A DNA stretch of 64,000 nt from a virus (lineage: Duplodnaviria; Caudoviricetes). The DNA is taken from IMG/VR virus record IMGVR_UViG_3300033463_000015; one strand, 5' to 3'. The translations under genes and the position numbers were made by a program. Position 1 is the stretch's first letter, and every line of letters starts with the position of its first letter. Below, piece after piece: positions 37,874-63,005 of this stretch. The notes below the pieces were generated by a model. It had not been told where the DNA came from, searched no databases, and saw only the letters and a list, made by a program, of their open reading frames with translations.

Positions 37874-37944
37874 AGCAGAGAGACGATTTGGTAATCGTGT
37901 GAGGGACGCCCACGTTGCGAGTTCAATTCTCGCCTCTGCTTTCA
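37874..37944 (+). ncRNA. tRNA-like RNA with aberrant anticodon arm
   Basis: Acceptor AGCAGAG/CTCTGCT; D and T arms intact; no 7-nt anticodon loop. Confidence 0.65.
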
Positions 37945-38420: not shown

Positions 38421-39362
38421 ATGGGCGTATATACAGCAACTGATTTACGACAAATGTAGTCTTTACCATTAGAGGCTAAAATCGTAAAATCTCAAGAACG
38501 GATCAAAGAATATTATGATTACTTCAATGGTGAAGTATACGTATCATTTTCGGGCGGAAAGGACAGCACAGTTCTTCTTCATTTGGTAAGACAACTTTAT
38601 CCAGAAGTAAGAGCAATGTTTGTCGATACTGGACTTGAATACCCAGAAGTAAAAGAGTTCGTAAAGCAGCACGAAAATGTCAGTATTGTGCGGCCAGCAA
38701 AAACGTATAAGCAAGTTATTGAACGCTTTGGCTATCCAATGATTAGTAAAATGACTGCTAATTGTATCGCTACGGCTCGCCGCGATCCGAATTCAACTCG
38801 CGCAAAATATCTTACTGGAGAAATTCCAACAAAAGCATTTGGCTATGGCAATGGTCGATGGTGGCATATGGTAACAGATGCTCCATTCAACACAAGTGGT
38901 TATTGTTGTGAAGTAATGAAAAAACAACCTGCCCATAAATTCAATCGAGAAACTGGACTAGTTCCAATGATAGCTACATTGGCTGATGAATCAGTCAATC
39001 GGCGGCTGACTTGGTATAAAGAAGGTTGTAATAGTTTCAAAGGTAAGGATTCTCAAAGTAAGCCTTTATCATTCTGGACCGATCAGGATATATATCATTA
39101 TATAAAAGATAATAATATTCCTTATTGTCCTATATATGGTGATATTATAGAAAATGAAAAAGGCGAACTAGTAACAACTGGTGTTGAACGCACAGGTTGT
39201 ATCTTCTGCGGTTTCGGCGCGCATCTTGAAAAAGAACCTAATCGTTTCCAACAGCTAAAAGAAACCCATCCAAAATTGTGGGATTATTGTATGCGGCCAT
39301 TGGAAGAAAATGGATTAGGTATGCGTGAAGTTTGCGAATTTATGAAAATTCCAATTGAGTGA
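38421..39362 (+). CDS. PAPS-reductase-family (PP-loop) protein
   Basis: SFSGGKDS, DTGLEYPE, CCEVMKK and RTGCIFCGFG; single TAG at codon 13. Confidence 0.85.
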
Positions 39363-39377
39363 GAAATCACTCTTTGA

Positions 39378-39451
39378 TGGCCCTTAGCTCATCAGGTTAG
39401 AGCAGCAGTCTTATAAACTGCAGGTGCTGGGTTCGACTCCCAGAGGGCCTA
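39378..39451 (+). tRNA. tRNA-Ile(TAT)
   Basis: GCAGT-CTTATAA-ACTGC. Confidence 0.85.
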
Positions 39452-39530
39452 CTATCAAATATTTGAAATATAGCAGTCAAATATTTGACTTTTCTCAAAA
39501 TTGTGCTATAATATATATGTAAACAAGGAA

Positions 39531-40117
39531 AGGAGATATTAGGTTAGTAAATTTTGAACCAAGTGAAGATGTGCTAACCACACAGCTTGGGCTATCCGTA
39601 TAGTAGCTGTCACTGCCCGAAGGATACTTTTGGTTAAACAGCCGCCAAAACAGCAATGTTAGGCGATAAAGGAGAAACTCCAAATACTAAGGATAGGCGC
39701 TTGGGTGTTCGCAATCAAAAGCACTTTTCCTCTCGGCTACATAATAGAAAGCTTGTTGAACAGACGAGCCGAATCCAGATAAGGCATTGGGGTGGTAGCC
39801 AATGCAAACTCTGGAAATACCATAAGTAGCTATCGGCGTTGATGAAAGCCGGAAACGGCATATAAGAGAGGTTTGTGGTGGGAGTAGGCCAAAGCGACGT
39901 ACAAGTAATATTGAATAAAAGAATTATTGAATATTGCTGAATGGTTTGGCTGAAACTTGAAGGTAGTCAATCCTTCCTACACACGGCGAAAGCGGATCGA
40001 AGAAGCTATGGGATCGCTACCTATGGCTCAGCCTTCGGTTCTGTAGTGGCTGAATATGATTGAAGAATTACTCGGGTACGGCGAAGGTCGCAACAGTTTA
40101 CTAACCTAATATCTCCT
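39531..40117 (+). ncRNA. Large structured RNA, probably ROOL class (587 nt)
   Basis: Own promoter; 21-bp perfect terminal inverted repeat; no ORF; size, tRNA-array context and 3' motifs resemble ROOL. Confidence 0.6.
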
Positions 40118-40142
40118 CTTTCTTTTTAACTAGGAGGCTTAT

Positions 40143-40604
40143 ATGAGACGAATTACTACAATTGTTCTTACGCTATGTTGCTTGCTAATGCCATTGGCCG
40201 CTCTGGGAGACAGTAGCCGTTCTCCTACATTAGATGCTTTATGGTACGCGGAACCAACACTACAGTTTCAGCTAATTAATAATATGGATGAATATGCTGA
40301 ATATCTAGAACTTATTTCAACCTATTATGACCTTGAGGGCTTCACAGAAATGGTTCTAGGAACAGATAAATTTCATATTGTTGATATGATTATCGTTACT
40401 TTAGACCAGACATATGGACGTGTTGTATGGCATACCCCCTATGGCTTTACAACTACTGATAATATCTGTGTCTTTATGATTTCTACGAATCTTTGGCAGG
40501 GATATGTAATGAATGCCAATGGTGATAGAAATGATAATCTAATTGTAAATTATAGTGAAGTGTCTCCGGGTACTTACTTTATGATTATCTATGCGGCTGA
40601 TTAA
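40143..40604 (+). CDS. Secreted/membrane-anchored hypothetical protein
   Basis: N-terminal signal-peptide-like segment. Confidence 0.65.
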   Translation: MRRITTIVLTLCCLLMPLAALGDSSRSPTLDALWYAEPTLQFQLINNMDEYAEYLELISTYYDLEGFTEMVLGTDKFHIVDMIIVTLDQTYGRVVWHTPYGFTTTDNICVFMISTNLWQGYVMNANGDRNDNLIVNYSEVSPGTYFMIIYAAD

Positions 40605-40636
40605 ATCAGTCGCGTTTTTTATTAGGAGTGAAAGAT

Positions 40637-41578
40637 ATGCCATTACCAGTATTATTTGCAGGAACAAGGCCACTTGGCAGAGCAGAAAATATTACCGCAT
40701 TATATGAGGCTTATTAGGGACTGAAAAAATATATTCAAGTTAGCGGAAGTAACGACCATCCAGAAATACGTTCTGGCAATTATAGAGTTTTAATTATTGA
40801 TGACTTTGGCTGTCGCAATCCTGGTAAATGTATTTTACTATGGCACGCTATTTAGGGCGGCAAATATATCGGTCTTAATTAGCCATTCCCTTATACTTCA
40901 TAGCAAAATATAAATAAAATTGATTATATTATTGCCGCAGGTGATGACGCTATTCCAATGTGGTAGCAATGTACTAATTTAGCCGCAGATAAAATTTTGC
41001 CGCTAGGAATGCCACGAACCGATTAGTTTATTGGCAAAACAAAAGGTGATGGGCATACATTATTGGCTAATAAAAAAGCTTATTTATATGCTCCTACTTT
41101 TAGACTTTCTAGTGAGCCATTATTCTTTTAGTTAGATTATGATTGGTTAGATAAACAATTAACTGATGATGAGATATTCGCAGTAAAAGCACATATGGTT
41201 GGAAAGAAAATTTTATCTAAAAAATATAATCATATTGTGGAAATCTCACAAAACGAGCCATCAACTCCATATTTATGTGATTGTGATGTTGTAATAACTG
41301 ATTATAGCAGCATTATATTTGATGGCTATTTACTAAATAAACCTGCTATTTTATTTGAAAAAAGTAGCGGTTATGCCGCTAGCCGTGGAATGTATATGAA
41401 TTATCCTAATGAGTATTGTTCTAAATATGCGACTAATGAATAGGAGTTATTAGATTTATTACGTTCTACTAATGAACTTACAGAAGTAGAAAGAAAATGT
41501 ATTCAACGAGTAGCGAATAAATGCGATGGAAATTCTTGCCAGCGCATTTGTGAACTAATTAAAAAGTTGAATTTTTAA
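40637..41578 (+). CDS. CDP-glycerol glycerophosphotransferase (TagF/TagB-like)
   Basis: WHA, LGMPRTD, LYAPTFR and DVVITDYSSIIFD motifs; many TAG. Confidence 0.8.
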
Positions 41579-41641
41579 AATAATTTTACTTGACTTTTCC
41601 CAAAATTATAGTATAATATAATTGTACCAAAGGGAAATGGT

Positions 41642-42200
41642 GCCGATATAGCTCAGTAGGTAGGTGCGTCTCCTTGGTTTGAAAATCTGCTTTATTATGC
41701 TTCTTTTGGGAGGATGATAAAATGGAATTAAATACCAAACAAAAAGGTAATATTACTGAAATGCAATGTGCCGTTGCTTTTATGTAGCAAGGATACAAAG
41801 TTAGCTTTCCATATGGTGAAGATTGTAAATATGATATGATTGTAGATACTGGTAAACATTTATATCGAGTACAATGTAAAACTTCATCTAAATTACCAAA
41901 TTCAGAAGAAGGATTTAAATTTAAAACTAGATCAACTGTAATTACAACTCATGGAGTAAAAACATCTGGATATTCACAAGAAGAAATAGATGTATTTGCT
42001 ACAATGTACGAAGGTCAATGCTATGTAATATCTGTAAAAGATTGTGGCGTAAATGAAAAAATTTTACGTTTCCAATATCCTAAAAATGGTCAGCATAAAG
42101 GCATTACCTTAGCTGTAGATTACAAATTGGAGCAAACTAAAGCATTTGAGTGATTTTTAAACAAAGGAGAAGGTCCCCAGTTCAAATCTGGGTATCGGCT
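41642..42200 (+). tRNA. tRNA-Thr(GGT) split by a 485-nt insert (exons 41642-41678 and 42164-42200)
   Basis: Joined exons give TCTCC-TTGGTAA-GGAGA and a canonical Thr body GCCGATA/TATCGGC. Confidence 0.85.
41722..42153 (+). CDS. PD-(D/E)XK homing-type endonuclease inside the tRNA-Thr insert
   Basis: TKQKGNITE...PYGEDCKYDMIVD...RVQCKT; TAG at codon 22. Confidence 0.8.
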
Positions 42201-42206
42201 TCATAT

Positions 42207-42279
42207 GGGGCCATAGTGATAATGGTTAGCACTACTGCCTTGCAAGCAGTGAGTCGGGGTTCGATTCCCCGTGGCTCCA
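42207..42279 (+). tRNA. tRNA-Ala(TGC)
   Basis: ACTGC-CTTGCAA-GCAGT; G3:U70. Confidence 0.9.
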
Positions 42280-42283
42280 CTTT

Positions 42284-42357
42284 CGGGATGTAGCACAGTT
42301 GGTTAGTGCAGCGCTCTGATAAGGCGAAGACCGATGGTTCAAGTCCATCCATCCCGA
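42284..42357 (+). tRNA. tRNA-Ile(GAT)
   Basis: Anticodon loop CT-GAT-AA. Confidence 0.85.
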
Positions 42358-42363
42358 TTTTAT

Positions 42364-42439
42364 GCGAGGTTAGCTCAGTTGGGAGAGCATCACGTTTACA
42401 CCGTGAGGGTCGGCGGTTCGAGCCCGTCACTTCGCACCA
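42364..42439 (+). tRNA. tRNA-Val(TAC)
   Basis: TCACG-TTTACAC-CGTGA; CCA. Confidence 0.9.
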
Positions 42440-42630
42440 GGCCAATGTAGCTACCGATAAGGAACTATGTCGAAAGAAAAGGCTCCGGAGATGTTCAGTA
42501 GGTTGAGCTCCAGAAATCAAACCTGCAGCCACAATAACCGTTGCTACGCGGGAAAATTGGACGCCCTTTAAAGTTGTTCGCGGTAGTGTGAATAACCTTC
42601 GCCACGGCGAAGTAAAATAGCCGTGGAAAT

Positions 42631-42705
42631 GCGCCATTAGTCTAAGGGATAGAACGAGTGGCTACGGACCACTAGATACGCGTTCGAGTCGTGTATGGCG
42701 TGCCA
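42631..42705 (+). tRNA. tRNA-Arg(ACG)
   Basis: AGTGG-CTACGGA-CCACT; CCA. Confidence 0.85.
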
Positions 42706-42708
42706 TAT

Positions 42709-43061
42709 GGGGTAGTTTTGGTTTCGACAGGTTATGAATGGTATTGAAATCACGGGTAGGCGGCGCACCTTACGCAGCAAACAATTGAACTGACAACGAT
42801 TATTTCTATAGCGAACTAAAGGCTGCTTAATTGCAGTTTCGCGCCTAAACAACAAACCTGCTAATCGGTAAATGTTTGCGGTTCAGAGATAGATTAGTAG
42901 ATTGGCTTCGGGCCAGCTGGTCTTCTCTATTCACAGTCCAACGAATAGAGTGGTGGAAGGATCATTCCCAGTTTGTCAGAACTTAAAACTGACTATCGTG
43001 TAAGTAATTTTCAATATTGGTTGTAGCTTGGACAGGGGTTCAACTCCCCTCTACTCCACCA
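42709..43061 (+). ncRNA. ssrA: tmRNA; tag (A)DNDYFYSELKAA at 42792-42830
   Basis: GGGGTAG...GGTTTCGAC 5' end; 3' T-arm and CTACTCCACCA; tag ends AA-stop. Confidence 0.9.
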
Positions 43062-43064
43062 TAT

Positions 43065-43150
43065 GCGTCGGTGTGTCCAGTGGCGAAGGCAGCGGACTGT
43101 AAATCCGTTACAAAGAAACATCGGTGGTTCGACTCCACCCCGGCGCACCA
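43065..43150 (+). tRNA. tRNA-Tyr(GTA)
   Basis: GCGGA-CTGTAAA-TCCGT; long variable arm; CCA. Confidence 0.9.
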
Positions 43151-43153
43151 TAT

Positions 43154-43226
43154 GCTCTGATAGCTCAGTTGGTAGAGCAGTAGACTGAAAATCTACGTGT
43201 GGGTAGTTCAATTCTACCTCAGAGCA
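43154..43226 (+). tRNA. tRNA-Phe(GAA)
   Basis: GTAGA-CTGAAAA-TCTAC. Confidence 0.9.
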
Positions 43227-43234
43227 TTATATAA

Positions 43235-43305
43235 GTTCCATTGGCCTATCGGTGGGGCACGACACTTTTAATGTCGGGAGACAGGTTCAACTCCTGTATG
43301 GGACA
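43235..43305 (+). tRNA. tRNA-Lys(TTT)
   Basis: CGACA-CTTTTAA-TGTCG. Confidence 0.8.
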
Positions 43306-43389
43306 CTTGAGGTAGCGTTGGAGTAATTAACCAACGAGATAATGCGCTCTCCCGCAAGCTCATATAAATTATCAGGAGAGTGATAATAT

Positions 43390-43818
43390 ATGGAGAATAC
43401 TAAAACAAAAGGACAAATTTCTGAAGCAAGAGTTTTATATGAATTTTAGAAGTATCATATACCAGTTTGTCTTCCTTGGGGAGATAATGAACGTTATGAT
43501 ATGGTTGCTGAATTTGATGGTAAATTTAATCGTATTCAAATAAAAACAGCTAATTAGGAAGAAAACGGTGCTGTATGCTGTTGGGCAAGAAGCTCAACAA
43601 ATCACACAACTAATAAAAAATTATCATCATATGAAAATGATGTTGATTACTTTGTCTTTGTTAATCAAACAAGGGACTGGCTAGCACTTGTGCCTATTGA
43701 AGAATTAAATGGGCAGAAAAGCATACGATTACGAATTAATCCACCATTAAATACTAATGGTAAAACTATAAGGTATTTTTCTGACTTCACATTTGATAAA
43801 AAATTTAATTCTCATTAA
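43390..43818 (+). CDS. Free-standing PD-(D/E)XK endonuclease (paralog of 41722-42153)
   Basis: TKTKGQISE...PWGDNERYDMVAE...RIQIKT; two TAG; missed by ORF track. Confidence 0.8.
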
Positions 43819-43837
43819 AATAAAAAGGAGAAAAAAT

Positions 43838-44005
43838 ATGCCAAAGGTAGGAGACAAAGTTCGTATTCTTTTTATGAGTGGTGAATCTCAGTATACTGGT
43901 CGTGTAGGTATCGTCAAATTCATTGATGATATGGGTTATATCCACGGAACTTGGGGCGGTTGTGCGCTAATTCCGGGAGAAGATGAATGGGAGATTATTG
44001 AATAA
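43838..44005 (+). CDS. DUF4314-like small protein
   Basis: GDKVRI...IDDMGYIHGTWG..LIPGED. Confidence 0.65.
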   Translation: MPKVGDKVRILFMSGESQYTGRVGIVKFIDDMGYIHGTWGGCALIPGEDEWEIIE

Positions 44006-44016
44006 TCTCCCTATAT

Positions 44017-44090
44017 AGGGGTATCGTTCAACGGTAGGACTACTGACTCCAAATCAGCCAATCTGTGTTCAAATCGCAGTACCCCTGCCA
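44017..44090 (+). tRNA. tRNA-Trp(CCA)
   Basis: CTGA-CTCCAAA-TCAG; CCA. Confidence 0.85.
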
Positions 44091-44093
44091 TAT

Positions 44094-44168
44094 GCATATG
44101 ATGCTCGTCGGCCGGGTGGCGGCCTGCAAAGCCGCTGTTAGTAGGTTCAACTCCTACCATATGCTCCA
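44094..44168 (+). tRNA. tRNA-Cys(GCA)
   Basis: GCGG-CCTGCAAAG-CCGC arm; U73; CCA; atypical D arm. Confidence 0.8.
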
Positions 44169-44267
44169 GATGGAGCCATTACGCTCAAGAGTTAGTATCA
44201 GCTGCTACGGCTCAAAGAGTAAAACAGATATTGCAAATAATGATGGTAAAGGCACTCCTCACCATAT

Positions 44268-44339
44268 GCCCCATTAGCTCAACGGACAGAGCCCGCGCCT
44301 TCTAAGCGCGTCATATATGTTCGACTCATATATGGGGTA
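44268..44339 (+). tRNA. tRNA-Arg(TCT)
   Basis: CGCGC-CTTCTAA-GCGCG. Confidence 0.85.
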
Positions 44340-44382
44340 CTAAGCCGCAAGGCTAAAAATAAAATAAAAGAGGTAAAAATAT

Positions 44383-44922
44383 ATGGCAGATACAAGACTA
44401 AAGATTCTACCACCTTGGACTATTGCTATTAGAAAGCTAGAAGCTCTATTTGATGGAGACCCACAGATTGCTTTTAATTGCGATTTCTCTGGTTCCCATC
44501 CAACTGTAGTTCTATCCTGTAATAATGGCGATAAGGTTACAGCACTACTTCAGATTCTTCCAGAAGAAATTAACTTTGGCAATGTTAGCCTAAAGGTTGT
44601 TGTTGATGGCACGCCAAGCAATCGTGCTTTCACCAGCAAGGTCGAGCTATTTGATGTAGCTTTCAAGGGCAATCCTTCTTATGCTTATTCCGTATGCCCT
44701 GTTGAGGAAGGCTATCAGTGGTTTGACACTACTTATGTAGTATTTAACAACTGTGTAGTACAGTTCGCGGCTGACAATCTAAACGATTGCCACGGCGTTA
44801 TCAGCACACTATATGAAACCATTGCTGATGAACTTCTAACTGGCCCCGCAACCGCTGGTGTATACTATAACACTAATGTTGAACGCGCCAATCTTGGCAT
44901 GCCTCTTGGCGAGTGGCCATAA
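44383..44922 (+). CDS. Hypothetical protein
   Basis: 179-aa ORF with GAGG RBS. Confidence 0.75.
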   Translation: MADTRLKILPPWTIAIRKLEALFDGDPQIAFNCDFSGSHPTVVLSCNNGDKVTALLQILPEEINFGNVSLKVVVDGTPSNRAFTSKVELFDVAFKGNPSYAYSVCPVEEGYQWFDTTYVVFNNCVVQFAADNLNDCHGVISTLYETIADELLTGPATAGVYYNTNVERANLGMPLGEWP

Positions 44923-44929
44923 TCCTTAA

Positions 44930-45056
44930 AATGCGGTGGCGGAATAGGTAGACGTCGTAGTTCCAAATCACAGGCTGAGTCGTAAAGGGACGAATAAAAC
45001 TGGCGAGCGAGAGCTGCCTGATCTCGTATGCGAGGTGCAAATCCTCGCCCGCATTA
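44930..45056 (+). ncRNA. tRNA-like RNA with ~75-nt domain replacing anticodon/variable arms
   Basis: AATGCGG/CCGCATT acceptor; Leu-type D arm GGCGGAATAGGTAGACG; T arm GCGAGG-TGCAAAT-CCTCGC. Confidence 0.65.
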
Positions 45057-45057
45057 T

Positions 45058-45130
45058 GCCGAATTAGCTCAATTGGCTAGAGCCACCGCCTTGTAAGCGG
45101 TAGATACGGGTCCGAGTCCCGAATTCGGCT
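45058..45130 (+). tRNA. tRNA-Thr(TGT)
   Basis: ACCGC-CTTGTAA-GCGGT. Confidence 0.85.
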
Positions 45131-45151
45131 TTCAATTTTAGGAGGCATAAT

Positions 45152-45649
45152 ATGTTTGATATTGAAGAAAATAAGCGTCTCTGCGACACATATCCCTTCC
45201 TTATTCCCTTCAATCGCTTCAGCGGCAAGCGTATTAACTGTGGCGAAAAAGGTTACTGGCCCGGTAATCCTGATGAGTATCCGCCAGAATGGAACTATGA
45301 ATATACAGAACTTGATGATATGCCAGATGGATGGCGTGATGCTTTTGGTGAACAATTGTGCTTTGAAATTAAACAAGCTTTGCTTGATGAAGGTGGCGAA
45401 AAGCTTCTTGATGAGTATCGCGTTGACCAAATTAAAGAAAAATATGGCACTTTAAGATGGTATGATAATTTTAGCACCAAACGCATTCAAGATATTCTTG
45501 AAAAATATGAAAATTTAAGTGCTCGCACTTGTATTAAATGCGGCAAGCCTGCTACTAAATTAAGCCGCGGGTGGATTGCCCCTTGGTGTGATGAATGCGG
45601 CAATGATGAAGATGAAGCGTATATGAGTTTAGACAATGCTTTTATTTGA
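45152..45649 (+). CDS. Conserved phage protein (QIKEKYGTLRWY family)
   Basis: QIKEKYGTLRWY and CIKCG...WCDEC motifs. Confidence 0.75.
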   Translation: MFDIEENKRLCDTYPFLIPFNRFSGKRINCGEKGYWPGNPDEYPPEWNYEYTELDDMPDGWRDAFGEQLCFEIKQALLDEGGEKLLDEYRVDQIKEKYGTLRWYDNFSTKRIQDILEKYENLSARTCIKCGKPATKLSRGWIAPWCDECGNDEDEAYMSLDNAFI

Positions 45650-45789
45650 CTTTTGATAAAAAATTTGATATAATATATATAGAAAGTAGGAAATCAGCGA
45701 GTTCTCCCACGAATAAAGTTAGCGCTGTAAAGGGTGGGAACGGTAGGCAGATAGAAGTTGTGAGGTCGCTGATAGGCAACAGATGAAAT

Positions 45790-46052
45790 AGCCCCGTAGT
45801 TGAATGGTACAACACCGGTCTCTAGCCTTAATTGGAGCCTTATATGGAGACGTATAAGTGAAAATGCCGCTAATTCGGTGAAAGCTTAACTGCTAACCCC
45901 GAGCAAGGAGAAATCCGTGTGTAGAGACTTTACACGGCACATCTAGAACAGATGAAGATAAAGTCCGGACCACGATGTGAAAACAATGTGGTGAAGAAAA
46001 CCGTAATATCCCTCTGACGGAGGTTGTCTGGGTTCGAATCCCAGCGGGGCCG
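45790..46052 (+). tRNA. Amber suppressor tRNA (CTA) interrupted by a group I intron
   Basis: Exons 45790-45823 + 45997-46052 give CGGT-CT-CTA-AA-ACCG; long variable arm; G73. Confidence 0.75.
45824..45996 (+). ncRNA. Group I intron (173 nt)
   Basis: Core elements AATTCGGTGAAAG / AACCCCGAGC / GTAGAGACT / AAGATAAAGTCC; IGS GGAG pairs exon CTCT with U.G at splice site; terminal G. Confidence 0.85.
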
Positions 46053-46054
46053 TC

Positions 46055-46203
46055 GCGACACTGTAGGCTTAGAAGTAGCCATCAGCTAAAGAGTTTATAT
46101 GCCTCCATTCGTGCGAAATGTATTATGGGCTACAAAAATTGTCCTATAAGTATGATGTGCGGTGGACAAAAGGTAAAATAATTTGGTGTAATAACACAGT
46201 CGC
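46055..46203 (+). ncRNA. 23S rRNA GTPase-associated-centre (L11-binding H43/H44) mimic RNA
   Basis: CTGTAGGCTTAGAAGTAGCCATCAGCTAAAGAG...GTGTAATAAC, closed by GCGAC/GTCGC. Confidence 0.75.
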
Positions 46204-46233
46204 ATTTTAGAAGCGTGAAAACGCTTCTTGTAT

Positions 46234-46367
46234 CTGGGTGTAGCGCAGTTTGGTAGCGCATCAGATTTGAAAATCTAGCATAACGGTAATGCTTTATATC
46301 AGAGTTCGATTCTCTGGATTTTCACGGGATCTGAGGGTCGTGAGTTCAAATCTCACCACCCAGACCA
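46234..46367 (+). tRNA. tRNA-Pro (TGG or CGG) with 57-nt tRNA-like insert in the anticodon loop
   Basis: CTGGGTG/CACCCAG-ACCA; TCAGA-TT...GGGA-TCTGA interrupted at 46268-46325. Confidence 0.85.
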
Positions 46368-46535
46368 ACAGGATGGCATGAAACCTGTCACAATCTGCAT
46401 AGCTGAGTGTAGATAAAAACATGCCTATCAGCATTTAGCGCCGTTGGGAACCTTATGGTGGAAGAGCCCTACAAGAAAGAGGCCGAGTAGTATCCGCAAC
46501 TCTTCCGGCGCATTTTTTTATTAAAAGGAGAAAAT

Positions 46536-46946
46536 ATGATAGCAAATATTTGTGAGCATTGCCAACACTTTTTAGAAGATCAAGCAGAATATCATTATTG
46601 CCATGTATGTAATATGGATCATAGTTGTTTTTTACTAAAAAACAAAGAAAAAGTTTTTTATCGTGTAATTACATTTTGTAATTTACCAAAAGAAGATGAC
46701 AATTTTCCACCAGACTATGACACACCAGCTTATTATGAAAATAAAGATGATGCTATTCAATGTGTAAAAGAAAATTGCTGTGATATTTATGAGGGTAGCT
46801 ATCCAGCCGCAATGGTAATTGAAACTGGATTTGGATGCTATCCATATTGCCCCAATCGTTGGTACTTTGAATGGGAAGGCGATTGGAGAACTGGTAAGTA
46901 TGTGCAAAAAGAAGAACCTAAATCATTGGAGCATTGGGGACTATGA
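46536..46946 (+). CDS. Cys-rich hypothetical protein
   Basis: AAGGAG RBS; 136 aa. Confidence 0.65.
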   Translation: MIANICEHCQHFLEDQAEYHYCHVCNMDHSCFLLKNKEKVFYRVITFCNLPKEDDNFPPDYDTPAYYENKDDAIQCVKENCCDIYEGSYPAAMVIETGFGCYPYCPNRWYFEWEGDWRTGKYVQKEEPKSLEHWGL

Positions 46947-46958
46947 AAGGAGATAATT

Positions 46959-47321
46959 ATGGGATACTATACTAGTTATAATCTTGATGTAAAAGGCGTT
47001 GAAAATAAAGAAAGATTTGAAGAATTGCAAAATGCACTAAAACAAATTGGCGTTATATACTATGCTTTAGATAGTGGTGAATATTTAGAGAAAATTAAAC
47101 TTGCTTCATTTTATACTTATGATTCTGCAAAATGGTATGAATATAATGATGATATGAAAAATCTTTCACTTATTTTTCCTAAATTTCTTTTCTGTCTCGA
47201 AGGAGTGGGAGAAGATTGGGATGATAGATGGCGTGCATATTATCATTATGGAGAAAGTGAATTTTGCCCTGCTCAAATTATATTTAAAGAACCAGAACGA
47301 ATTAAATGGAGCGAAGAATGA
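46959..47321 (+). CDS. Hypothetical phage protein
   Basis: MGYYT...KWY...LEGVGEDWDDRWR. Confidence 0.7.
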   Translation: MGYYTSYNLDVKGVENKERFEELQNALKQIGVIYYALDSGEYLEKIKLASFYTYDSAKWYEYNDDMKNLSLIFPKFLFCLEGVGEDWDDRWRAYYHYGESEFCPAQIIFKEPERIKWSEE

Positions 47322-47761
47322 AAATTTACACTTCTTATTGGGCTATGGTACGTCATTTTCCTACCAATCTTATTGGTTTAAATACTACAATTTGGCCTCC
47401 TAAATGGCGGCCACTAGGTAAAGACGCAAGAGGTGTCATTGTTATAGACTGCCCGCCCCTTAAACCCGGAGCCGCGTGTGAAGGTTTATGTAATGGAAAA
47501 TGTAGCCCTAAACATCCACAAGATTGTGAGTTTCTAAATGTATATCAGCGGCAACTAGATGAAATTGATTTTAATCAATTTATGAACTCATTACAAAAAT
47601 TACACGATAAGATTTGTGCTGAAGAAGGATTTGAGGATGTAGATTTTGCTCTCATTGTATATGAGACACCGCAGAATCATTGTAGCGAGCGTTTGCCACT
47701 ATGGATATGGCTTCAAATGAATGGTATTGAACCTCAGGAATTTAACAAAAGTAGTATTTGA
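47318..47761 (+). CDS. Hypothetical protein (DUF488-like)
   Basis: MKIYTSYW start; YETP..HCSER. Confidence 0.55.
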   Translation: MKIYTSYWAMVRHFPTNLIGLNTTIWPPKWRPLGKDARGVIVIDCPPLKPGAACEGLCNGKCSPKHPQDCEFLNVYQRQLDEIDFNQFMNSLQKLHDKICAEEGFEDVDFALIVYETPQNHCSERLPLWIWLQMNGIEPQEFNKSSI

Positions 47762-47815
47762 CAATTATAAAAATTATGATATAATATAATTGAACAAAAG
47801 GAAAGGAGCATTTAT

Positions 47816-48031
47816 ATGAAGCCTAGGGTAATCAAGAATCGCATCGAGTTTAATCTGTATCCTGATGAGGATAGCTATCAGCAGGCTGTAAGTCTTGGTT
47901 TTGATGTAGATCAGGATATGCCGCTTGAAGCGCTTCATCGTATGTGCCGTTATTTTGCGCTATGTCTAGGTTTTGCAGAATCTAGCGTAGATGAGATGTT
48001 CGGTGAAGAAAGTTATAATGACCTCTGTTGA
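47816..48031 (+). CDS. Hypothetical protein
   Basis: Promoter plus AAGGAG RBS. Confidence 0.65.
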   Translation: MKPRVIKNRIEFNLYPDEDSYQQAVSLGFDVDQDMPLEALHRMCRYFALCLGFAESSVDEMFGEESYNDLC

Positions 48032-48200
48032 TATTGACCGACTCTTTAAAGATTTAATTAATTATTGGGGTACAGCTCCATTTGGATTTGTACTCGCGGC
48101 AATCGCAGACGCAGAACAAGCGTGGGAAGAAGAAAACTACGATCGCATTGTAGAATGGGCAGTACAAGAAGGATTTAATTTGGAGGATTATTATGTTTAA
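48018..48200 (+). CDS. Small acidic hypothetical protein
   Basis: Overlaps both neighbours as in a coupled operon. Confidence 0.55.
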   Translation: MTSVDIDRLFKDLINYWGTAPFGFVLAAIADAEQAWEEENYDRIVEWAVQEGFNLEDYYV

Positions 48201-48399
48201 GTATAAGGTTCATTACTGGGATGAAGTTGAAAATAAGAATCTTGATGATACTGGTCTTGTCGCCGCAAAGTCTTGGGGCAAAGCAGTCGAAAAGGTTCGG
48301 GAATATTATGGGCCTAAGAATGTATATAGTATTACCGTTGAGGAATGGGATGAAGTTGTATATGCTGAAGAGGTTCTTAATGGACTAACTGAAGAGTAA
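48193..48399 (+). CDS. Hypothetical protein
   Basis: GGAGG RBS; 68 aa. Confidence 0.65.
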   Translation: MFKYKVHYWDEVENKNLDDTGLVAAKSWGKAVEKVREYYGPKNVYSITVEEWDEVVYAEEVLNGLTEE

Positions 48400-48419
48400 T
48401 CGCGGCGAAAGCCGCATAT

Positions 48420-48705
48420 GCGGGTATGGCGGAATAGGCAGACGCCACAGACTTTAATAAAAAGAGCACTAGAATAGGAAACTTTCTGAGTGAATGCTGG
48501 CTAATTCGGTGAAAGTCCTTATGGGATAACGCCGAGCTAAATGGTTTAAAACCTAAATGTGTAGAGACTATATACCAGCCACCTAAATCATAAGATATGG
48601 TGAAGACATAGTCCAGACTACAACGTGTAAGCGGCCATAGTAATATGGAGTAGTAGGAAAATCTGTTGCCCTCTGGGCGTGCCGGTTCAAGTCCGGCTAC
48701 CCGTA
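48420..48705 (+). tRNA. tRNA-Leu(TAA) with group I intron
   Basis: Exons 48420-48454 + 48658-48705 give ACAGA-CT-TAA-AA-TCTGT; Leu-type D arm. Confidence 0.85.
48455..48657 (+). ncRNA. Group I intron (203 nt), after U34
   Basis: AATTCGGTGAAA / AACGCCGAGC / GTAGAGACTA / AAGACATAGTCC core; IGS GAG pairs CTT; terminal G. Confidence 0.85.
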
Positions 48706-48756
48706 CTTATAATCAAAACACCTCCCTTTCTCTACGCGGCGGAAACGCCGCATTAT

Positions 48757-48844
48757 GCCCTCGTGCCGCAGCTAGTGAGACGGGGTAGTCTCAAAAACTA
48801 CTACACAAGAAACATCGTGGGCGCACATCCCACCGAGGGTACCA
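48757..48844 (+). tRNA. tRNA-Leu(CAA), non-canonical T loop
   Basis: GTAGT-CTCAAAA-ACTAC; CCA. Confidence 0.75.
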
Positions 48845-48918
48845 GTGGCTTTTAGAACAAAAGAGGTTAGCCTGCGCAAGAACCCATATGTCGTTGCGGT
48901 GACGTGAAGCCGCACCAC

Positions 48919-48989
48919 GCACCATTAGTGTAATGGCAACATTCCTGCCTTCCAAGCAGTAGTTGGCGGTTCAAATCCGCTATGGTGCT
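48919..48989 (+). tRNA. tRNA-Gly(TCC)
   Basis: CTGC-CTTCCAA-GCAG. Confidence 0.85.
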
Positions 48990-49366
48990 TTGGGGAGGAG
49001 TTAAAAGCGTCCTCTCTCTGGTGCAATGCGGTAATACCTGTATACGGGTCCCAAAAGTTACCCTACCAGTAGTTAGAAGTCTGTAAAACTTCCATTGGGC
49101 TGGCTGAGAGGCCCGGGTCCACCTTGTAGGTTTCGCTTGACCGCAGGGGATGTATTCCCGAAACAAGCATTTAATATTATAAGCTGCCGACGCCTCTGCT
49201 GACGAGCAAGCGTACCACGGGGCAATGGGCTCGTTAATAACCTCCTCAAAACCGAGGAAGTAGGTACCTTGAGCCCTTCATTAATCAATAGGAGTCTTGA
49301 GCGGTTATTAGACTTAATACTCAACCGACCGATCGTACGCGGCAAAACAAATCCTATTGACGTTAT

Positions 49367-49453
49367 GCAGATGTGGCTGAGTGGTCTAAAGCAGCGGTTT
49401 GCTAAACCGTCGTACTTTCATCGGTACCGAAGGTTCAAATCCTTCCATCTGCG
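49367..49453 (+). tRNA. tRNA-Ser(GCT)
   Basis: GCGGT-TTGCTAA-ACCGT; long variable arm. Confidence 0.9.
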
Positions 49454-49471
49454 CTTTAAGGAGATGATTCT

Positions 49472-49735
49472 ATGGAAAATAAAGAAAATACTTCGATGTT
49501 AGAGGGATGGCGTTGCCCTTAGTGTGGAGCAGTAATGTCTCCATTTGTACGTAGCTGTGTAAATTGTGTTGGTAAATCTTCGCCTACAGTTGTTCAACCA
49601 AATACGACTACTCCATTAACTGAGCCATATCCATCTACAACTACACCTATATATGAAGAAGTTCCTTGGTGGATAACATACAATAGACCAATTACTATTA
49701 CTTGTGAAACAAAACCAGTTCAATGCTGGTTGTAA
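49472..49735 (+). CDS. Zn-ribbon small protein
   Basis: GWRCP(Q)CG...CVNC, TAG inside the CxxC. Confidence 0.65.
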
Positions 49736-49741
49736 AGGAGA

Positions 49742-49984
49742 ATGATTATGGATAGATTACGTATTCGTATTTTAAGCCAGAATGATGTAGTCTCGCTAGT
49801 AAATAGTCTAAATACTTGGACTGATAAGTTTATTCTTGAAAGTGAAGATGGCACTTATAGAGTAAATGCCAAGAGCGTTCTTGGTGTTCTTTACTTTGTG
49901 TCTGAACACCCAATGGATACTTATCTTATAAATATGACTAGCGGCGGCTACTACCCTGATGGTGCTATGCGTTTTCGCTTTTGA
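49742..49984 (+). CDS. HPr-fold protein
   Basis: VNAKSVLGVL resembles the HPr Ser46 motif; no His15 motif. Confidence 0.6.
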   Translation: MIMDRLRIRILSQNDVVSLVNSLNTWTDKFILESEDGTYRVNAKSVLGVLYFVSEHPMDTYLINMTSGGYYPDGAMRFRF

Positions 49985-49997
49985 AAGCGCAATTTAA

Positions 49998-50069
49998 TGA
50001 GGATTCGTATAACGGCGAGTACACACGGCTTTGACCCGGGTAGCGATGGTTCGATTCCATCATCCTCAG
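49998..50069 (+). tRNA. tRNA-Gln(TTG)
   Basis: U1-A72; CGG-CTTTGAC-CCG; G73. Confidence 0.85.
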
Positions 50070-50074
50070 CTTAT

Positions 50075-50163
50075 GGGCATGTGGCCGAGTGGTTTAAGGC
50101 GGCGGTCTTGAAAACCGTTGATGTGATGAACATCCGTGGGTTCAAATCCTACCGTGCCCGTCA
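50075..50163 (+). tRNA. tRNA-Ser(TGA)
   Basis: GCGGT-CTTGAAA-ACCGT; long variable arm. Confidence 0.9.
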
Positions 50164-50184
50164 ATCTTATAAGGTGGTGATACT

Positions 50185-50451
50185 ATGCGCGAAACAGCTG
50201 AACGACGTCATAATGATTGGACAAAGGCTATTCGTAAGCGTAATTTATATCCCGATTATTATGATAATCTGCACCAATATAGTAAAAATAAAATTCATTG
50301 CTCTTGTCCAATGTGCGCGAGAAAATCTAACAATAAAGGCATATACGCCTTCTATCATGGATCGCATAATTTAACCATTGCGGACCGCCGCAGACAAGAA
50401 GAAATGGATGACCAACTTGAAGATTTGACTTTTGACGAAATTGATGTATAA
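50185..50451 (+). CDS. Hypothetical protein
   Basis: IHCSCPMC motif. Confidence 0.65.
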   Translation: MRETAERRHNDWTKAIRKRNLYPDYYDNLHQYSKNKIHCSCPMCARKSNNKGIYAFYHGSHNLTIADRRRQEEMDDQLEDLTFDEIDV

Positions 50452-50475
50452 TATAATTGTAGAAAGGAGATAAGT

Positions 50476-50961
50476 ATGCCTACATTGTATATTATGTGCG
50501 GTATTCCGGGGTCTGGTAAAACTTATTTTGCACGGAATTTTCTTCGTGCAGATGTAACAGTATCTCGTGATAATATTCGTTTCATGATGCTGGATGATAA
50601 TGAACAGTATTTTGACCATGAGGCTGAAGTATTTAACGAATTTGTAAAAACTCTTGTGCATCATCTTCATCATTTTGAAACAGTGGTAGCGGATGCGACT
50701 CATCTCAACATCTGGTCACGTAAAAAGCTTACAAATGCTATTGACAAATATATTACGGATTATCGCATCGTATATGTGGTATGCGCTCCTTCACTACAGG
50801 TATGCCTCTATCGTAACAGCAAGCGCACTGGCCGTTCTCGAGTACCAGACGAAATCGTAAAAGAAATGGCCGACAAATTTCATCCGCCCGTAACTGACGC
50901 TTATAAATTGGAAGATGAGCGAGCAGTAGGAGTTTGGTGGATTAATGGCGAACCAAAATGA
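50476..50961 (+). CDS. P-loop kinase (polynucleotide kinase/AAA_33-like)
   Basis: GIPGSGKT, SRDNIR, DATHL and RNSKR lid motif. Confidence 0.8.
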   Translation: MPTLYIMCGIPGSGKTYFARNFLRADVTVSRDNIRFMMLDDNEQYFDHEAEVFNEFVKTLVHHLHHFETVVADATHLNIWSRKKLTNAIDKYITDYRIVYVVCAPSLQVCLYRNSKRTGRSRVPDEIVKEMADKFHPPVTDAYKLEDERAVGVWWINGEPK

Positions 50962-51572
50962 ATAACATTTGGTTTACAAGCGATACACATTTCTTTCACG
51001 AGCAATCATTCATTTACGAACCTCGCGGTTTTACTACCACTATGGAAATGAATGAAGCGATAGTAGAACGATGGAACGAGGTAGTCCAAGAAGAAGATAC
51101 TGTCTATCATCTCGGCGATGTATTAATGGGACATTATGATGTTAATATCCTAAAAAGACTAAACGGTAATATATTTTTAATTCGCGGCAATCACGATACA
51201 TTGCAGAAAATTAGCGACATCTACGAAACTGGCAAGGTAACTAATATTATACACACTAGCGAACTTTTAAAGTTCGGCAAACTAAATTTCTTTTGTTGCC
51301 ATTATCCAGTTCTTACTGCTAATTTTGATGATAAGCATTTTTCGCAGCATATTATTTCCCTACATGGTCATTCACATCAAACTTCTAACTGGCTATTTCC
51401 TGAAAACCCATTTATTTATCATGTTGGACTTGATTCGCACGATTGTAAGCCTGTTCATCTAGACGAAATTACTACGGATATACGAAATAGATGGAATCAA
51501 TTAGGCTAGCTTCCAATCATGTTAAATAAAGATTATCATAAAAATTTCACCTCCGAAGAAAGTCAAGATTAA
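50958..51572 (+). CDS. Calcineurin-like metallophosphoesterase
   Basis: SDTHFFH, HLGD, GNHD, HYP and HGHSH; TAG 51507 read through to TAA 51570. Confidence 0.85.
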
Positions 51573-52991: not shown

Positions 52992-54212
52992 ATGTTAAAT
53001 TCAAAACAGGAACGCGAATTAGCTTATGTAGGAATTATTGATGGTATTGAACCCATCCTCGGATATGACCGTGTTGAACACGCTATTGTTGGCGGCTGGC
53101 GTGTTATTGTTCAGAAGGGTCAATTTAATGTAGGTGATCCGGCTATCTACTTTGAAATTGATTCCCGCGTGCCTTCTGATAAAGAATGCTTTGCTTTCCT
53201 TGAGAAGCGGCATTATAAGGTAAAAACGCTGAAGATGTGTAAGACTCTTTCACAAGGTTTGCTTATGCACGCCGAAGATTTTGGTTGGCACATAGGACTA
53301 AATTGTGGAGTGATGATGATTTATGATGGAGAAGAATGGCATAATCCTCTTGATGAATCCCGCTTCCTGACTAAACAACTTGGCGTAACTTACGCCGATG
53401 AAGAAGACAATCAGCGTAAGGCTCCTACTGTAGATAAGTATAAGAAAATGGCCGCTCGTCATCCCGAAATTTTCAAGAAATCTTGGGCTAAGTGGATGAT
53501 GAAACATAATTTTGGCCGCAAAGTGATGTTTTTCTTCTTTGGTAAAAAGAAAGATAAGAAGAATGGTTGGCCTTCTTGGGTTCAAAAGACCGATGAAGAG
53601 CGAGTGCAAAATATGCCTTGGATTCTAAATGATGATGGTGATTGGATTGCCACTGAGAAGATTGATGGAACTAGCACTACTTTCTCTATGAAGCGTGGTA
53701 AATTTAGACATAAATCTTTCTATGTCTGTTCCCGCAATGTATGCTTTGGAGAAGAAAGTAAAGAATGCTATTATGATACCAATGTATACTGGGAAATGGC
53801 TAAGCAATATGATATGTTCAAGGTACTATCTAATTTGTTGGCCGCTTATCCTAATGAAGAATGGATTACCATTCAAGGTGAAACTTTTGGTGATGGTATC
53901 CAGCGGCGAGATTACTCTCTCTGCGGTGAACACGATTTTCTAGCATTTAATCTAATTTTCTCATCTCGCGGTCGTGTAGGAACTCTTGAAATGATTGATA
54001 TTCTCGATCCATATGGAATTGAATGCGTGCCTGTGCTTAATTGTAAGATGAAAATTAATCAATTTGAAAATGTAGATGCTATTCTTACTTATGCAGAAGG
54101 TAAATCTTGTCTGGATAATTTACCTCGCGAAGGTATCGTATTCCGTTCTACTGATGGCTCTAAATCTTTTAAAGCTGTAAGTAATAGTTTTCTTCTAAAG
54201 TATCACTCTTAA
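52992..54212 (+). CDS. RNA ligase (DRB0094/Rnl2-Rnl5-like) with N-terminal OB-like domain
   Basis: YFEIDS, KTDEERVQN, TEKIDGTS, IQGE, REGIVF and SFKAVSNSFL. Confidence 0.85.
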   Translation: MLNSKQERELAYVGIIDGIEPILGYDRVEHAIVGGWRVIVQKGQFNVGDPAIYFEIDSRVPSDKECFAFLEKRHYKVKTLKMCKTLSQGLLMHAEDFGWHIGLNCGVMMIYDGEEWHNPLDESRFLTKQLGVTYADEEDNQRKAPTVDKYKKMAARHPEIFKKSWAKWMMKHNFGRKVMFFFFGKKKDKKNGWPSWVQKTDEERVQNMPWILNDDGDWIATEKIDGTSTTFSMKRGKFRHKSFYVCSRNVCFGEESKECYYDTNVYWEMAKQYDMFKVLSNLLAAYPNEEWITIQGETFGDGIQRRDYSLCGEHDFLAFNLIFSSRGRVGTLEMIDILDPYGIECVPVLNCKMKINQFENVDAILTYAEGKSCLDNLPREGIVFRSTDGSKSFKAVSNSFLLKYHS

Positions 54213-61161: not shown

Positions 61162-61770
61162 ATGGACCCAGATTTCAATTTCCTAGTCCAAGATGATACA
61201 TCTGGATTAGACCCTGTAATGTATCAGTATTATCATCAAATGAATGATAATCGAACCCTTATTCTCAATACAGAAATTGATGAACGTATTGTAGAGATGA
61301 TTTATCTACCAATGAGAGATTGGGAAAATGACAGTGATACGCGCCCTGTGACGCTTATATTAAATTCACAAGGAGGTTGTGTATCAGACGGATTTTTCCT
61401 CGCTTAGTATATTAGCCAGTATAAGAAGCCGCTACATATTATTGTTCCTGGTTATGCTGCGTCTATGGCGGCTGTAATTCTAGCTGGCGGCGGCAATAAC
61501 GAAAATGTAACTCGTTTCTGCTTCCCAAGCACTTATGCGTTAATTCACGATGGATATGTGGCATTAAGCGCCAGTGAGGCTAAAACCGCTAATGATATTA
61601 TGGCTTTTAATAACAAGGTAGATGAAGACATTCGTAAATTCATCATTGATAATACTAACATTACCGCAGAAGAATATGATACCCACGCTAGGCACCAATG
61701 GTTTTTATCCGCTGATGAGATGAAGAAGTATAATCTCGTGGATAAAATTTATGGTGTTGATGCTGAATGA
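61162..61770 (+). CDS. clpP: ClpP-family protease subunit
   Basis: LNSQGG, AASMAA (catalytic Ser), LIHD and WFLSADE; TAG at codon 82. Confidence 0.8.
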
Positions 61771-63005
61771 ATATAAACTTTTTAGATACTTCTGCGGTGC
61801 TCAATGGGGCTTATAAGAGATTTGAAAACGTATATATTAGTCCTATTGTATTAATGGAACTTGAAAATATAAAAACTTCACAAAAAGATGAGAAAACTAA
61901 GTATCTCGCACGGCAAGCTGTGCGAGATCTTATTACATCAAAAGATATACATTTTATTACTGCTGATATTAATTGTAAAAAGAAATTTAAAAAATATCCA
62001 TTTTTACAAGATATACACGATCATTGGCTAATAGCAGAGGCCGCGGCATTAAAGAATCATAAAGATGAAGTATTTTTTATGACCGCCGATGGCGCTTAGT
62101 TTTTGATTGCTAAATAGGTGCCGGAAATACAAGCTATTTATTTAGGAGAAATTGAACAACCACATATTGAGCATACTGAATATTGTGGATGGGGAAAATA
62201 TTATCCAACTACTTAGCAAATGGCGCAACTATATTAGTGCCCAACAATGAATACATTAAAATGTCCAACAAATTCTTTTGCTGAAATTTTTGTAGGAGAA
62301 GAATTAAAAGATGTATTATTCTGGAACGGACACGAATACACACCATTAAATTGTAAAGATATTAAAAATGTATATACTGGCGAAGTAATTAAACCTAGGA
62401 ATTTAGAGCAAAAAATGGCAATACATTTGCTACAAAACCAAGACATAAAAGTAAAGCTACTTACTTCTGCTTGGGGTAGCGGTAAAACATTATTGGCTTT
62501 AAATTACGCATTAGAACAAGTAGCCCGCGGCCGCTAGCCTAAAATTACTTTTATTCGTAATAATATTATTGTTGCTGATACAAAGGACATTGGCTTTGTG
62601 CCAGGAGATGTGCGGCAAAAGATGAGTATGTGGGGTGGAGTAATAGCTGACCATTTAGGCGGTCAAATGATGCTGGACCAACTTATTGATGATGGCATTA
62701 TTGAAATATTCCCTATTTCTCATATTAGAGGTCGTTCTATAAAAGGTATCATCTTTTGTGATGAATGTGAAAATTTAAATGATAAATTAGTAACATTATT
62801 ACTTAGCCGCGTTGAAGATGGCGGCGAAATTATATTCTGTGGCGATGTTGCACAAATTGATAGCCCACGATTTGAATAGAATAATGGTATTAGAGCTATG
62901 CTAGATAATTTAGTCGGCGACCCATTATTTGGAACTGTAAAATTATTAAAATCAGAGCGTGGCCCAATTCCACAATTGTGCGATAAAATTATTCCGCCAA
63001 GATAA
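61767..63005 (+). CDS. phoH: PIN-PhoH ATPase
   Basis: FLDTS PIN start, GSGKT, IGFVPG, IRGRS, DECEN and GDVAQID; joined across TAG. Confidence 0.85.

Follow-up and report, generated by a model that had tools for sequence, protein, structure and literature searches.

A tRNA-Shaped Insert in the Anticodon Loop of a Rumen Phage tRNA-Pro and Its Possible Removal by tRNA-Processing Enzymes

The phage and its tRNA array

The stretch of DNA analysed here, 64,000 nucleotides long and called the window below, is part of a rumen phage genome of about 174 kb. It holds a long tRNA array, in which ARAGORN called 20 genes and Rfam gave 26 matches, including a ROOL RNA and a tmRNA. Two tRNA genes of the array are central to this work: a tRNA-Pro (46234-46367, + strand) with 57 extra bases, 46269-46325, within its anticodon loop, and a tRNA-Thr(GGU) split by a longer insert, described further below. 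A third, tRNA-Leu(UAA), carries a group I intron (48445-48630) that was detected with the Rfam family RF00028. The tRNA-Pro is the last member of a unit of suppressor tRNA, small RNA and tRNA-Pro, which has a promoter-like site upstream.

45646-45674, + strand: promoter-like site, TTGACT-17 nt-TATAAT, a consensus match only
46234-46268, + strand: 5' exon of tRNA-Pro, nt 1-34, with acceptor strand CTGGGTG (C1), D arm, TCAGA, U32 U33 U34 (sequence, Rfam, fold)
46269-46325, + strand: insert, 57 nt, tRNA-shaped, without an anticodon arm, running from G1 to C72, A73 and C74 (Rfam, fold, covariance model)
46269-46275, + strand: inner acceptor stem, 5' strand GAAAATC, inside TTGAAAATCT, a motif common to the tRNA-Thr(GGU) insert (sequence)
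46278-46292, + strand: inner D arm, GCAT (46278-81), AACGGTA (46282-88), ATGC (46289-92), with A14, G18, G19 and A21
46293-46299, + strand: linker TTTATAT, 7 nt, in place of an anticodon arm (sequence)
46300-46316, + strand: inner T arm, CAGAG (46300-04), TTCGATT (46305-11), CTCTG (46312-16), with T54, T55, C56, G57 and A58
46317-46323, + strand: inner acceptor stem, 3' strand GATTTTC, followed by A73 and C74 (sequence, fold)
46326-46367, + strand: 3' exon of tRNA-Pro, G35 to A76, with CCA encoded (sequence, Rfam, fold)

The relatives used for comparison are IMG/VR contigs, which we take to be rumen-derived as well. A run search found related sequence in one sequencing run, from a bovine gut metagenome, and listed no run recorded as RNA. 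A blastn search of about 50,000 GenBank phage records returned no match, and no cultured relative was found. When TAG is read through, the + strand ORFs of at least 200 aa in the window rise in total length from 5,660 to 13,378 aa. The TAG-rich late genes, taken with a suppressor tRNA whose anticodon is CUA, indicate that TAG is a sense codon in the late genes.

The suppressor tRNA (45789-46054) is itself interrupted by about 173 nt. The interruption has group-I-like core motifs resembling those of the Leu(UAA) intron and no Rfam match, and is a probable compact group I intron. Just upstream of tRNA-Asn, at 37874-37941, there is a weak tRNA-like match (31.7 bits) whose anticodon region is aberrant. 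Downstream of the tRNA-Pro (46368-46515), about 66 nt that come straight after the CCA are present in the window and in a relative, L001, and missing from another relative, L002. Next come a conserved structured element (GCGCCG...CGGCGC) and a T run, and an element similar to the structured one follows tRNAs in contig G003 (L019, about 340-430).

Anatomy of the split tRNA-Pro

The outer tRNA has the pair C1:G72, A73 and an encoded CCA; C1:G72 with A73 is typical of bacterial tRNA-Pro. Its anticodon stem, TCAGA (46261-46265) with TCTGA (46330-46334), encloses 64 nt, 57 more than the 7 of a normal loop. The insert begins with GAAAATCTAGC and reads as a miniature tRNA, in which U8 and A9 (T8 and A9 in the DNA) stand between the acceptor strand at 46269-75 and the D arm that starts at 46278. 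An earlier note on this DNA, made from the sequence alone, had described a 57-nt mini-tRNA without an anticodon arm inside the proline anticodon loop, and this description holds in every detail in the sequence, the Rfam matches and the folds.

The same note had stated that removing 57 nt leaves a perfect 7-nt loop with TGG or CGG, depending on register, which is also what the sequence gives. Removal of 46269-46325 yields the loop TTTGGGA (UGG), and removal of 46268-46324 yields TTCGGGA (CGG). The choice between the two registers is taken up with the alleles.

The insert as a tRNA look-alike

The Rfam tRNA family, RF00005, matches the split tRNA-Pro over 131 nt with 57.2 bits. ARAGORN did not call the gene. 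The insert alone scores 42.5 bits against RF00005 (E 1.2e-8, 46269-46324), above the gathering cut-off of 29 bits, so that it passes as a tRNA by this test. It has no anticodon arm in the same alignment, where 18 model positions are left out and 3 nt stand in their place. The bases that build the elbow of a tRNA are complete: U8, A14, G18, G19, A21, T54, T55, C56, R57 and A58.

Folding agrees with this picture. In the minimum-energy structure predicted for the 134 nt, the four outer helices and the three inner ones all form (-44.4 kcal/mol, z -3.5), and the insert folded alone takes the same shape (z -3.1). A covariance model built from the insert (R1) matches only the insert itself and the copy in L001; the next matches are genuine tRNAs, in which the model treats the anticodon arm as an insertion. 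No parent tRNA for the D and T arms of the insert was found among all loci fetched.

The note had further claimed that the insert lacks a group I or group II core and a full bulge-helix-bulge, and this was confirmed. The group I, group II and small-ribozyme families of Rfam gave no match to the insert at E values up to 10, and the group I core (RF00028, P3-P9) is missing. A bulge-helix-bulge was defined as two 3-nt bulges with a 4-bp helix between them and both splice sites in the bulges. Instead, the 5' strand is unbroken in the predicted fold, which has only one 3-nt bulge, C74 G35 G36.

Alleles with and without the insert

Fourteen related loci were fetched by using the neighbouring RNA ligase gene as a handle. 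One of them, L001, whose ligase is 89% identical, has the same split tRNA-Pro with the same insert. The two alleles differ at 5 of 134 positions, and all 37 base pairs are intact in both. The insert accounts for three of the differences, which affect tRNA positions 16, 57 (G to A, so that the purine is kept) and 59. The other two make up one compensatory change, from A-U to G-C, in the outer T stem.

Four relatives have a tRNA-Pro(UGG) that lacks the insert: L002, L009, L113 and the G003 contig, with one such gene each in the stretches read. The earlier note had proposed looking in related phages for alleles with and without the insert, and both kinds thus exist. The insert-less tRNA-Pro of L002 lies in a gene order that matches that of the window. 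In two of the four, L113 and the G003 contig, the loop is TTTGGGA, identical to the one expected after excision of 46269-46325, and the tRNA-Pro of L113 has the acceptor stem, the T arm and nearly the whole D arm in common with the split gene. An insert-less allele with identical exons was not found in the viral contigs. Three pairs of the anticodon stem differ between insert-bearing and insert-less alleles and all three are compensated, a pattern that would be expected if flanking exon sequence had been co-converted during transfer of the insert.

These alleles bear on the idea that the RNA might work unspliced, as a composite with two elbows that serves, for example, as a decoy or binding platform. 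The stable composite fold is what such an RNA would show. The exons, however, retain the identity features of proline, a perfect loop appears only once exactly 57 nt are taken out, and an ordinary tRNA-Pro takes the same place in relatives. We consider a functional composite very improbable.

The tRNA-Pro block is 96.7% identical between the window and L001, compared with 78-87% for the flanking genes. An 81-nt 3' flank is conserved equally to the block, so that recent recombination or exchange could explain the high identity. In a simulation, the 16 pairs and 10 elbow bases of the insert all survived three random changes in 7% of cases; all 37 pairs survived five such changes, likewise in 7%. 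Read together, the substitutions are only suggestive of a split gene that has been kept functional.

Conservation and covariation of the D and T arms had been put forward in the note as a sign that the insert is not a dead pseudo-tRNA. The arms and the elbow are kept in L001, but there is no covariation within the insert, whose stems do not vary between the only two alleles. Exact and degenerate pattern scans of viral contigs and a scan of metagenomes gave no further alleles: between them they returned the L001 contig, L113 with its insert-less gene, and L109, a stand-alone mini-tRNA that is unrelated, and nothing else.

The alleles also inform the choice of register. A second tRNA-Pro was not seen in the window or in the stretches of the L001 contig that were read. 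CCA and CCU together make up 79% of proline codons, and CCG makes up 12%. Since the insert-less relatives all have UGG, no second tRNA-Pro was seen and CCA and CCU outweigh CCG, the junction U34/G35 (a slash marks a junction here and below), which would give UGG, is the likely one. The CGG register, with RNase P cutting at -1 and RNase Z after A73, was ranked lower on the same grounds, the UGG of the relatives and the 12% of CCG. It has in its favour a canonical RNase Z cut and a possible eighth pair, U34:A73.

A spliced tRNA-Pro in the UGG register would read ...CAGATTT followed by GGGATCTG. The strings that would mark a junction are CATCAGATTTGGGATCTGAGG for UGG, CATCAGATTCGGGATCTGAGG for CGG and CATCAGATTTCGGGATCTGAGG for an 8-nt loop. 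The bovine gut run, which is marked "probably DNA", matched 6% of the sampled words and showed only relatives over 39000-51000. A joint from 46258 to 46335 in this run was considered as a spliced product and rejected. It carries 19 other letters and is the insert-less allele of a relative, with the loop TTTGGGG, and not the result of splicing.

A mobile endonuclease insert with the same ends

The split tRNA-Thr(GGU) lies upstream of the tRNA-Pro in the same window.

41642-42200, + strand: tRNA-Thr(GGU), split at 36/37 by a 485-nt insert (41679-42163) (sequence, profile matches)

This insert is almost entirely one ORF (41722-42153, 143 aa), which encodes a PD-(D/E)XK endonuclease of the I-Ssp6803I family (PF11645). 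It has no room for a ribozyme and has no T or D arm. A free-standing second copy of the endonuclease ORF is found at 43390-43818, and an insert-less ortholog of the tRNA-Thr(GGU) is found in L111 (7217-7289). In L005 and L010 the tRNA-Thr(UGU) gene is interrupted by homologous inserts, which likewise have an ORF and end AACA/AA. We found no publication on ribozyme-less PD-(D/E)XK inserts after phage tRNA anticodons.

The tRNA-Thr(GGU) and tRNA-Pro inserts have their ends in common: TTTGAAAATC and then TGCTTTAT at the 5' end and GATTTTTA at the 3' end. The motif TTGAAAATCT occurs in the 64 kb only at the 5' junctions of these two inserts, and both 3' ends have GATTTTYA. Put another way, the Pro insert consists of the termini of the Thr insert with 14 nt that complete the D arm, and a T arm in the place of the ORF. 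Folding and reading of the sequence suggest that the ends of the Thr insert pair, together with the anticodon loop, into a 19-bp rod with hardly a break. Judged from these shared sequences, the Pro insert is probably a small ORF-less relative of the mobile family, and such kinship would explain its patchy distribution. The locus thus ties tRNA-shaped and endonuclease-bearing ribozyme-less tRNA inserts together through their shared ends.

Kinship with a homing-endonuclease insert also raises the prospect that the Pro insert is simply selfish: a mobile element that is never spliced and disables the phage tRNA-Pro, so that the halves are not rejoined and the phage uses the tRNA-Pro of its host. 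RNase P and RNase Z may release the mini-tRNA in this case too. The common ends are what such an element would have, as are its patchiness (two contigs with it and four relatives without) and the allele-specific anticodon stem, which looks as if flanking exon had moved along, and we know of no splicing enzyme in bacteria for inserts of this kind. Both alleles nevertheless have intact exons, one with a compensatory change in the T stem; the block is conserved above the flanking genes; and the gene is the sole tRNA-Pro in a tRNA set that is otherwise nearly complete. A purely selfish insert seems to us somewhat unlikely.

A possible excision and ligation pathway

We tentatively read the insert as a protein-dependent, ribozyme-less intron in the only tRNA-Pro seen in the window, quite possibly correct but far from established. 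Three genes 4-8 kb downstream of the tRNA-Pro encode enzymes that could take part in its maturation.

50476-50961, + strand: protein with an AAA_33 kinase fold, read as polynucleotide-kinase-like; candidate for RNA end healing
50958-51509, + strand: metallophosphoesterase; candidate for RNA end healing
52992-54212, + strand: RNA ligase, Rnl5 type, with PF21189 (N-terminal OB) and PF09414 (nucleotidyltransferase)

From the observed anatomy, alleles, shared ends and ligase type, we infer the following cleavages and ligation. Host RNase P would cut before G+1, between 46268 and 46269, and leave U34 with a 3'-OH. A second endonuclease, of the RNase Z type or another still to be named, would cut after C74, two bases past the inner acceptor stem, and leave G35 with a 5'-phosphate. 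An RNA ligase, most simply the Rnl5-type enzyme of the phage, would then close the loop to UUUGGGA, with the anticodon UGG. The excised RNA would be a 55-57-mer, and by descent the insert would be a small ORF-less relative of the homing-endonuclease insert that splits tRNA-Thr(GGU). No RNase P or RNase Z gene was found in the window, so this pathway needs enzymes of the host.

RNase P at the 5' site appears to be the best-supported single step. The sequence offers U-1, G+1:C72, a stacked acceptor/T helix of 12 bp and an elbow of T-loop and D-loop, and both U-1 and G+1:C72 favour RNase P. Cleavage by RNase P or RNase Z produces 3'-OH and 5'-phosphate ends. Since a ligase of the Rnl5 type joins a 3'-OH to a 5'-phosphate, the chemistry of the ends fits cuts by these two enzymes. 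The ligase matches the Naegleria gruberi RNA ligase NgrRnl (5COT) with an E value of 1.5e-28 and has the features that define Rnl5. Two points about it count against the pathway: it is present also in relatives where no such insert was seen, and Rnl5 enzymes are known to seal nicks in duplexes, not broken anticodon loops.

The 3' site fits less well. A cut by RNase Z after A73 would leave C74 on the exon, so canonical cuts by RNase P and RNase Z would give an 8-nt loop and the simple pathway is one base off; the UGG loop needs a 3' cut after C74. RNase Z enzymes can cleave either 3' of the discriminator or immediately 3' of an encoded CCA, and are inhibited by a C directly after the discriminator (PMC7479834). 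With C74 after the discriminator, the 3' junction is therefore unfavourable for RNase Z. The note had proposed excision by host RNase P and RNase Z with sealing by the phage ligase; of this, the end chemistry and the RNase P site would stand, while the canonical cuts are predicted to miss the 7-nt loop. As the note had also suggested, the insert might conceivably hide the anticodon loop from host anticodon nucleases until maturation. RNase III was considered as the cutter and rejected: a 2-nt 3' overhang is predicted for the excised Pro insert, whereas overhangs of 3-4 nt are predicted for the other inserts.

The misfit of one base leaves room for a dedicated endonuclease, which would read the helix or junction that the inserts share (the anticodon stem continued into the helix GAAAAUC/GAUUUUY), with the elbow incidental or serving another purpose. 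The restriction of TTGAAAATCT to the two 5' junctions in 64 kb, the shared 3' ends GATTTTYA and the 19-bp rod of the Thr insert are consistent with such an enzyme. The ORF-bearing relatives have no elbow, and so the elbow is not the signal if one machinery removes both kinds. Against this, the splice positions are 34/35 and 36/37, so that the cuts would be differently placed on the helix; an elbow that is canonical and has every tertiary base would hardly be there by accident; and the window has no evident candidate for an RNA endonuclease except a PIN-PhoH protein (61767-63005). We rate a dedicated endonuclease as rather improbable.

Comparison with known systems

tRNAs are spliced by two established routes, self-splicing group I introns and cutting by EndA/Sen followed by ligation. 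Bacteria and their viruses are not known to use any but the first. If an intron drew in RNase P and RNase Z through tRNA mimicry, that would be a third route, and phage RNA ligases would gain a role beyond the repair of damage. Such a route in phages of bacteria, with RNase P, an RNase Z-type cut and a phage ligase, and with mini-introns as ORF-less partners of endonuclease inserts, is a broader proposal than the intron reading itself, and we hold it to be doubtful at present.

The group I introns found in tRNA anticodon loops, such as that of tRNA-Leu(UAA), are like the Pro insert in their place of insertion, their patchiness and their link to homing endonucleases. Unlike them, the Pro insert has 57 nt, too short for the core, and no match to RF00028. 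The tRNA introns of archaea and eukaryotes have a bulge-helix-bulge that is cut by EndA/Sen, which leaves cyclic-phosphate and 5'-OH ends, and their exons are joined by RtcB or Trl1. Here, too, proteins would open the RNA in the anticodon loop and join it again, but the Pro insert has no bulge-helix-bulge, and we know of no EndA from bacteria or phages.

Plant mitochondrial t-elements and the MALAT1 mascRNA are tRNA-like signals that are cut by RNase P and RNase Z. They share with the proposed pathway a tRNA-shaped module that does not decode and recruits tRNA end-processing enzymes to a longer RNA; unlike in the pathway, the flanking pieces are not rejoined. The Pnkp and Rnl1 enzymes of phage T4 repair a tRNA that has been cut in its anticodon loop, which is likewise healing and sealing of a broken anticodon loop by phage enzymes. 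T4, however, repairs damage inflicted by the host and does so with Rnl1, whereas the ligase here is Rnl5-like (5COT). The ORF-bearing PD-(D/E)XK inserts have the same terminal sequences and closing helix as the Pro insert, lie in the same genome and tRNA array and also have no ribozyme. They differ in being about 465-490 nt long, with an ORF and no elbow, and in their position at 36/37 and their end, AACA/AA.

The closest published case is an intron in a tRNA of the Lak phages, which may itself encode a tRNA (Devoto et al. 2019, Nat Microbiol, Fig. 4; PMC6784885). Like the Lak intron, the Pro insert is short, is predicted to be tRNA-like and interrupts the anticodon loop of a phage tRNA that is intact in all other parts and in which a 7-nt loop can be restored. 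Alleles with and without it exist in both systems (here L001 on one side and L002, L113, L009 and the G003 contig on the other), and a ribozyme has been recognised in neither. The Pro insert differs in having no anticodon arm and no CCA and in having ends common to an endonuclease-bearing insert, and the phages differ as well: the Lak phages have genomes of about 540 kb and infect Prevotella, and the phage studied here has about 174 kb, is from the rumen and is TAG-recoded. The claim in the earlier note that no described tRNA intron class is like this one was therefore too strong; the design is rarely reported but not unprecedented. The Lak phage paper offers no mechanism (PMC6784885), and neither a later paper on the subject nor a mechanism for such inserts was found in the literature. 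Since standard tRNA finders miss genes split in this way, the tRNA sets of phages are under-counted.

Other tRNA-like inserts and mini-tRNAs

This phage group has further ribozyme-less inserts whose ends are tRNA-like, beside at least one genuine group I intron. The tRNA-Thr(UGU) of a close relative, L016 (156-345; contig G002, 100955-101143, the genome of L002), has an unrelated insert of about 117 nt at 34/35, after a U and before a G, as in the tRNA-Pro. This insert alone scores 35.8 bits as a tRNA. Its G+1 comes right after U34, and U73-CCA, an exact NCCA, stands directly before G35. A 49-nt insert is found at 32/33 of tRNA-Leu(UAA) in L017 (232-367), L005 (16708-16843) and L010 (17434-17569), the latter two being contigs G004 and G005. 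It is closed by GCTAG/CTAGC, ends in ACCA and has no evident T-loop motif.

Armless mini-tRNAs also exist on their own. A scan of IMG/VR viral contigs with one pattern gave 73 of them (L020-L108), 54-57 nt long and with acceptor and T stems intact, and all 11 that were checked pass the Rfam cut-off for tRNA. They lend some weight to the notion that the mini-tRNA itself is the product, an armless tRNA-like RNA released from a tRNA precursor, with the outer tRNA re-formed or not. The stand-alone copies, however, differ from the insert in sequence and setting and have no known function, and the insert has no encoded CCA and no recognised identity element in its acceptor stem. There is, in our judgement, little chance that the mini-tRNA is the product.

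Many of the stand-alone mini-tRNAs directly follow an ORF whose product ends in ...C-x-x-P-C-N-G-D-C. In three unrelated viral contigs, tRNAs have an insert of 46-51 nt where the 5' strand of the anticodon stem meets the loop, and this insert contains a second hairpin like a T arm (L056, 9932-10057; L059, 2573-2698; L060, 1111-1231).

Among more distant relatives there are possible circularly permuted tRNA genes, in L017 (about 131-215) and L018 (about 190-290). The order of their parts is T arm and 3' acceptor strand, a linker of 3-4 nt, 5' acceptor strand, D arm and anticodon arm. The pieces of L017, rejoined in silico, were called by ARAGORN as tRNA-Ile(GAU), and no ordinary Ile(GAU) gene was seen in the stretch read. 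The spacers between tRNA-like elements in L017, L018 and L019 repeat the motif ACAGCAA.
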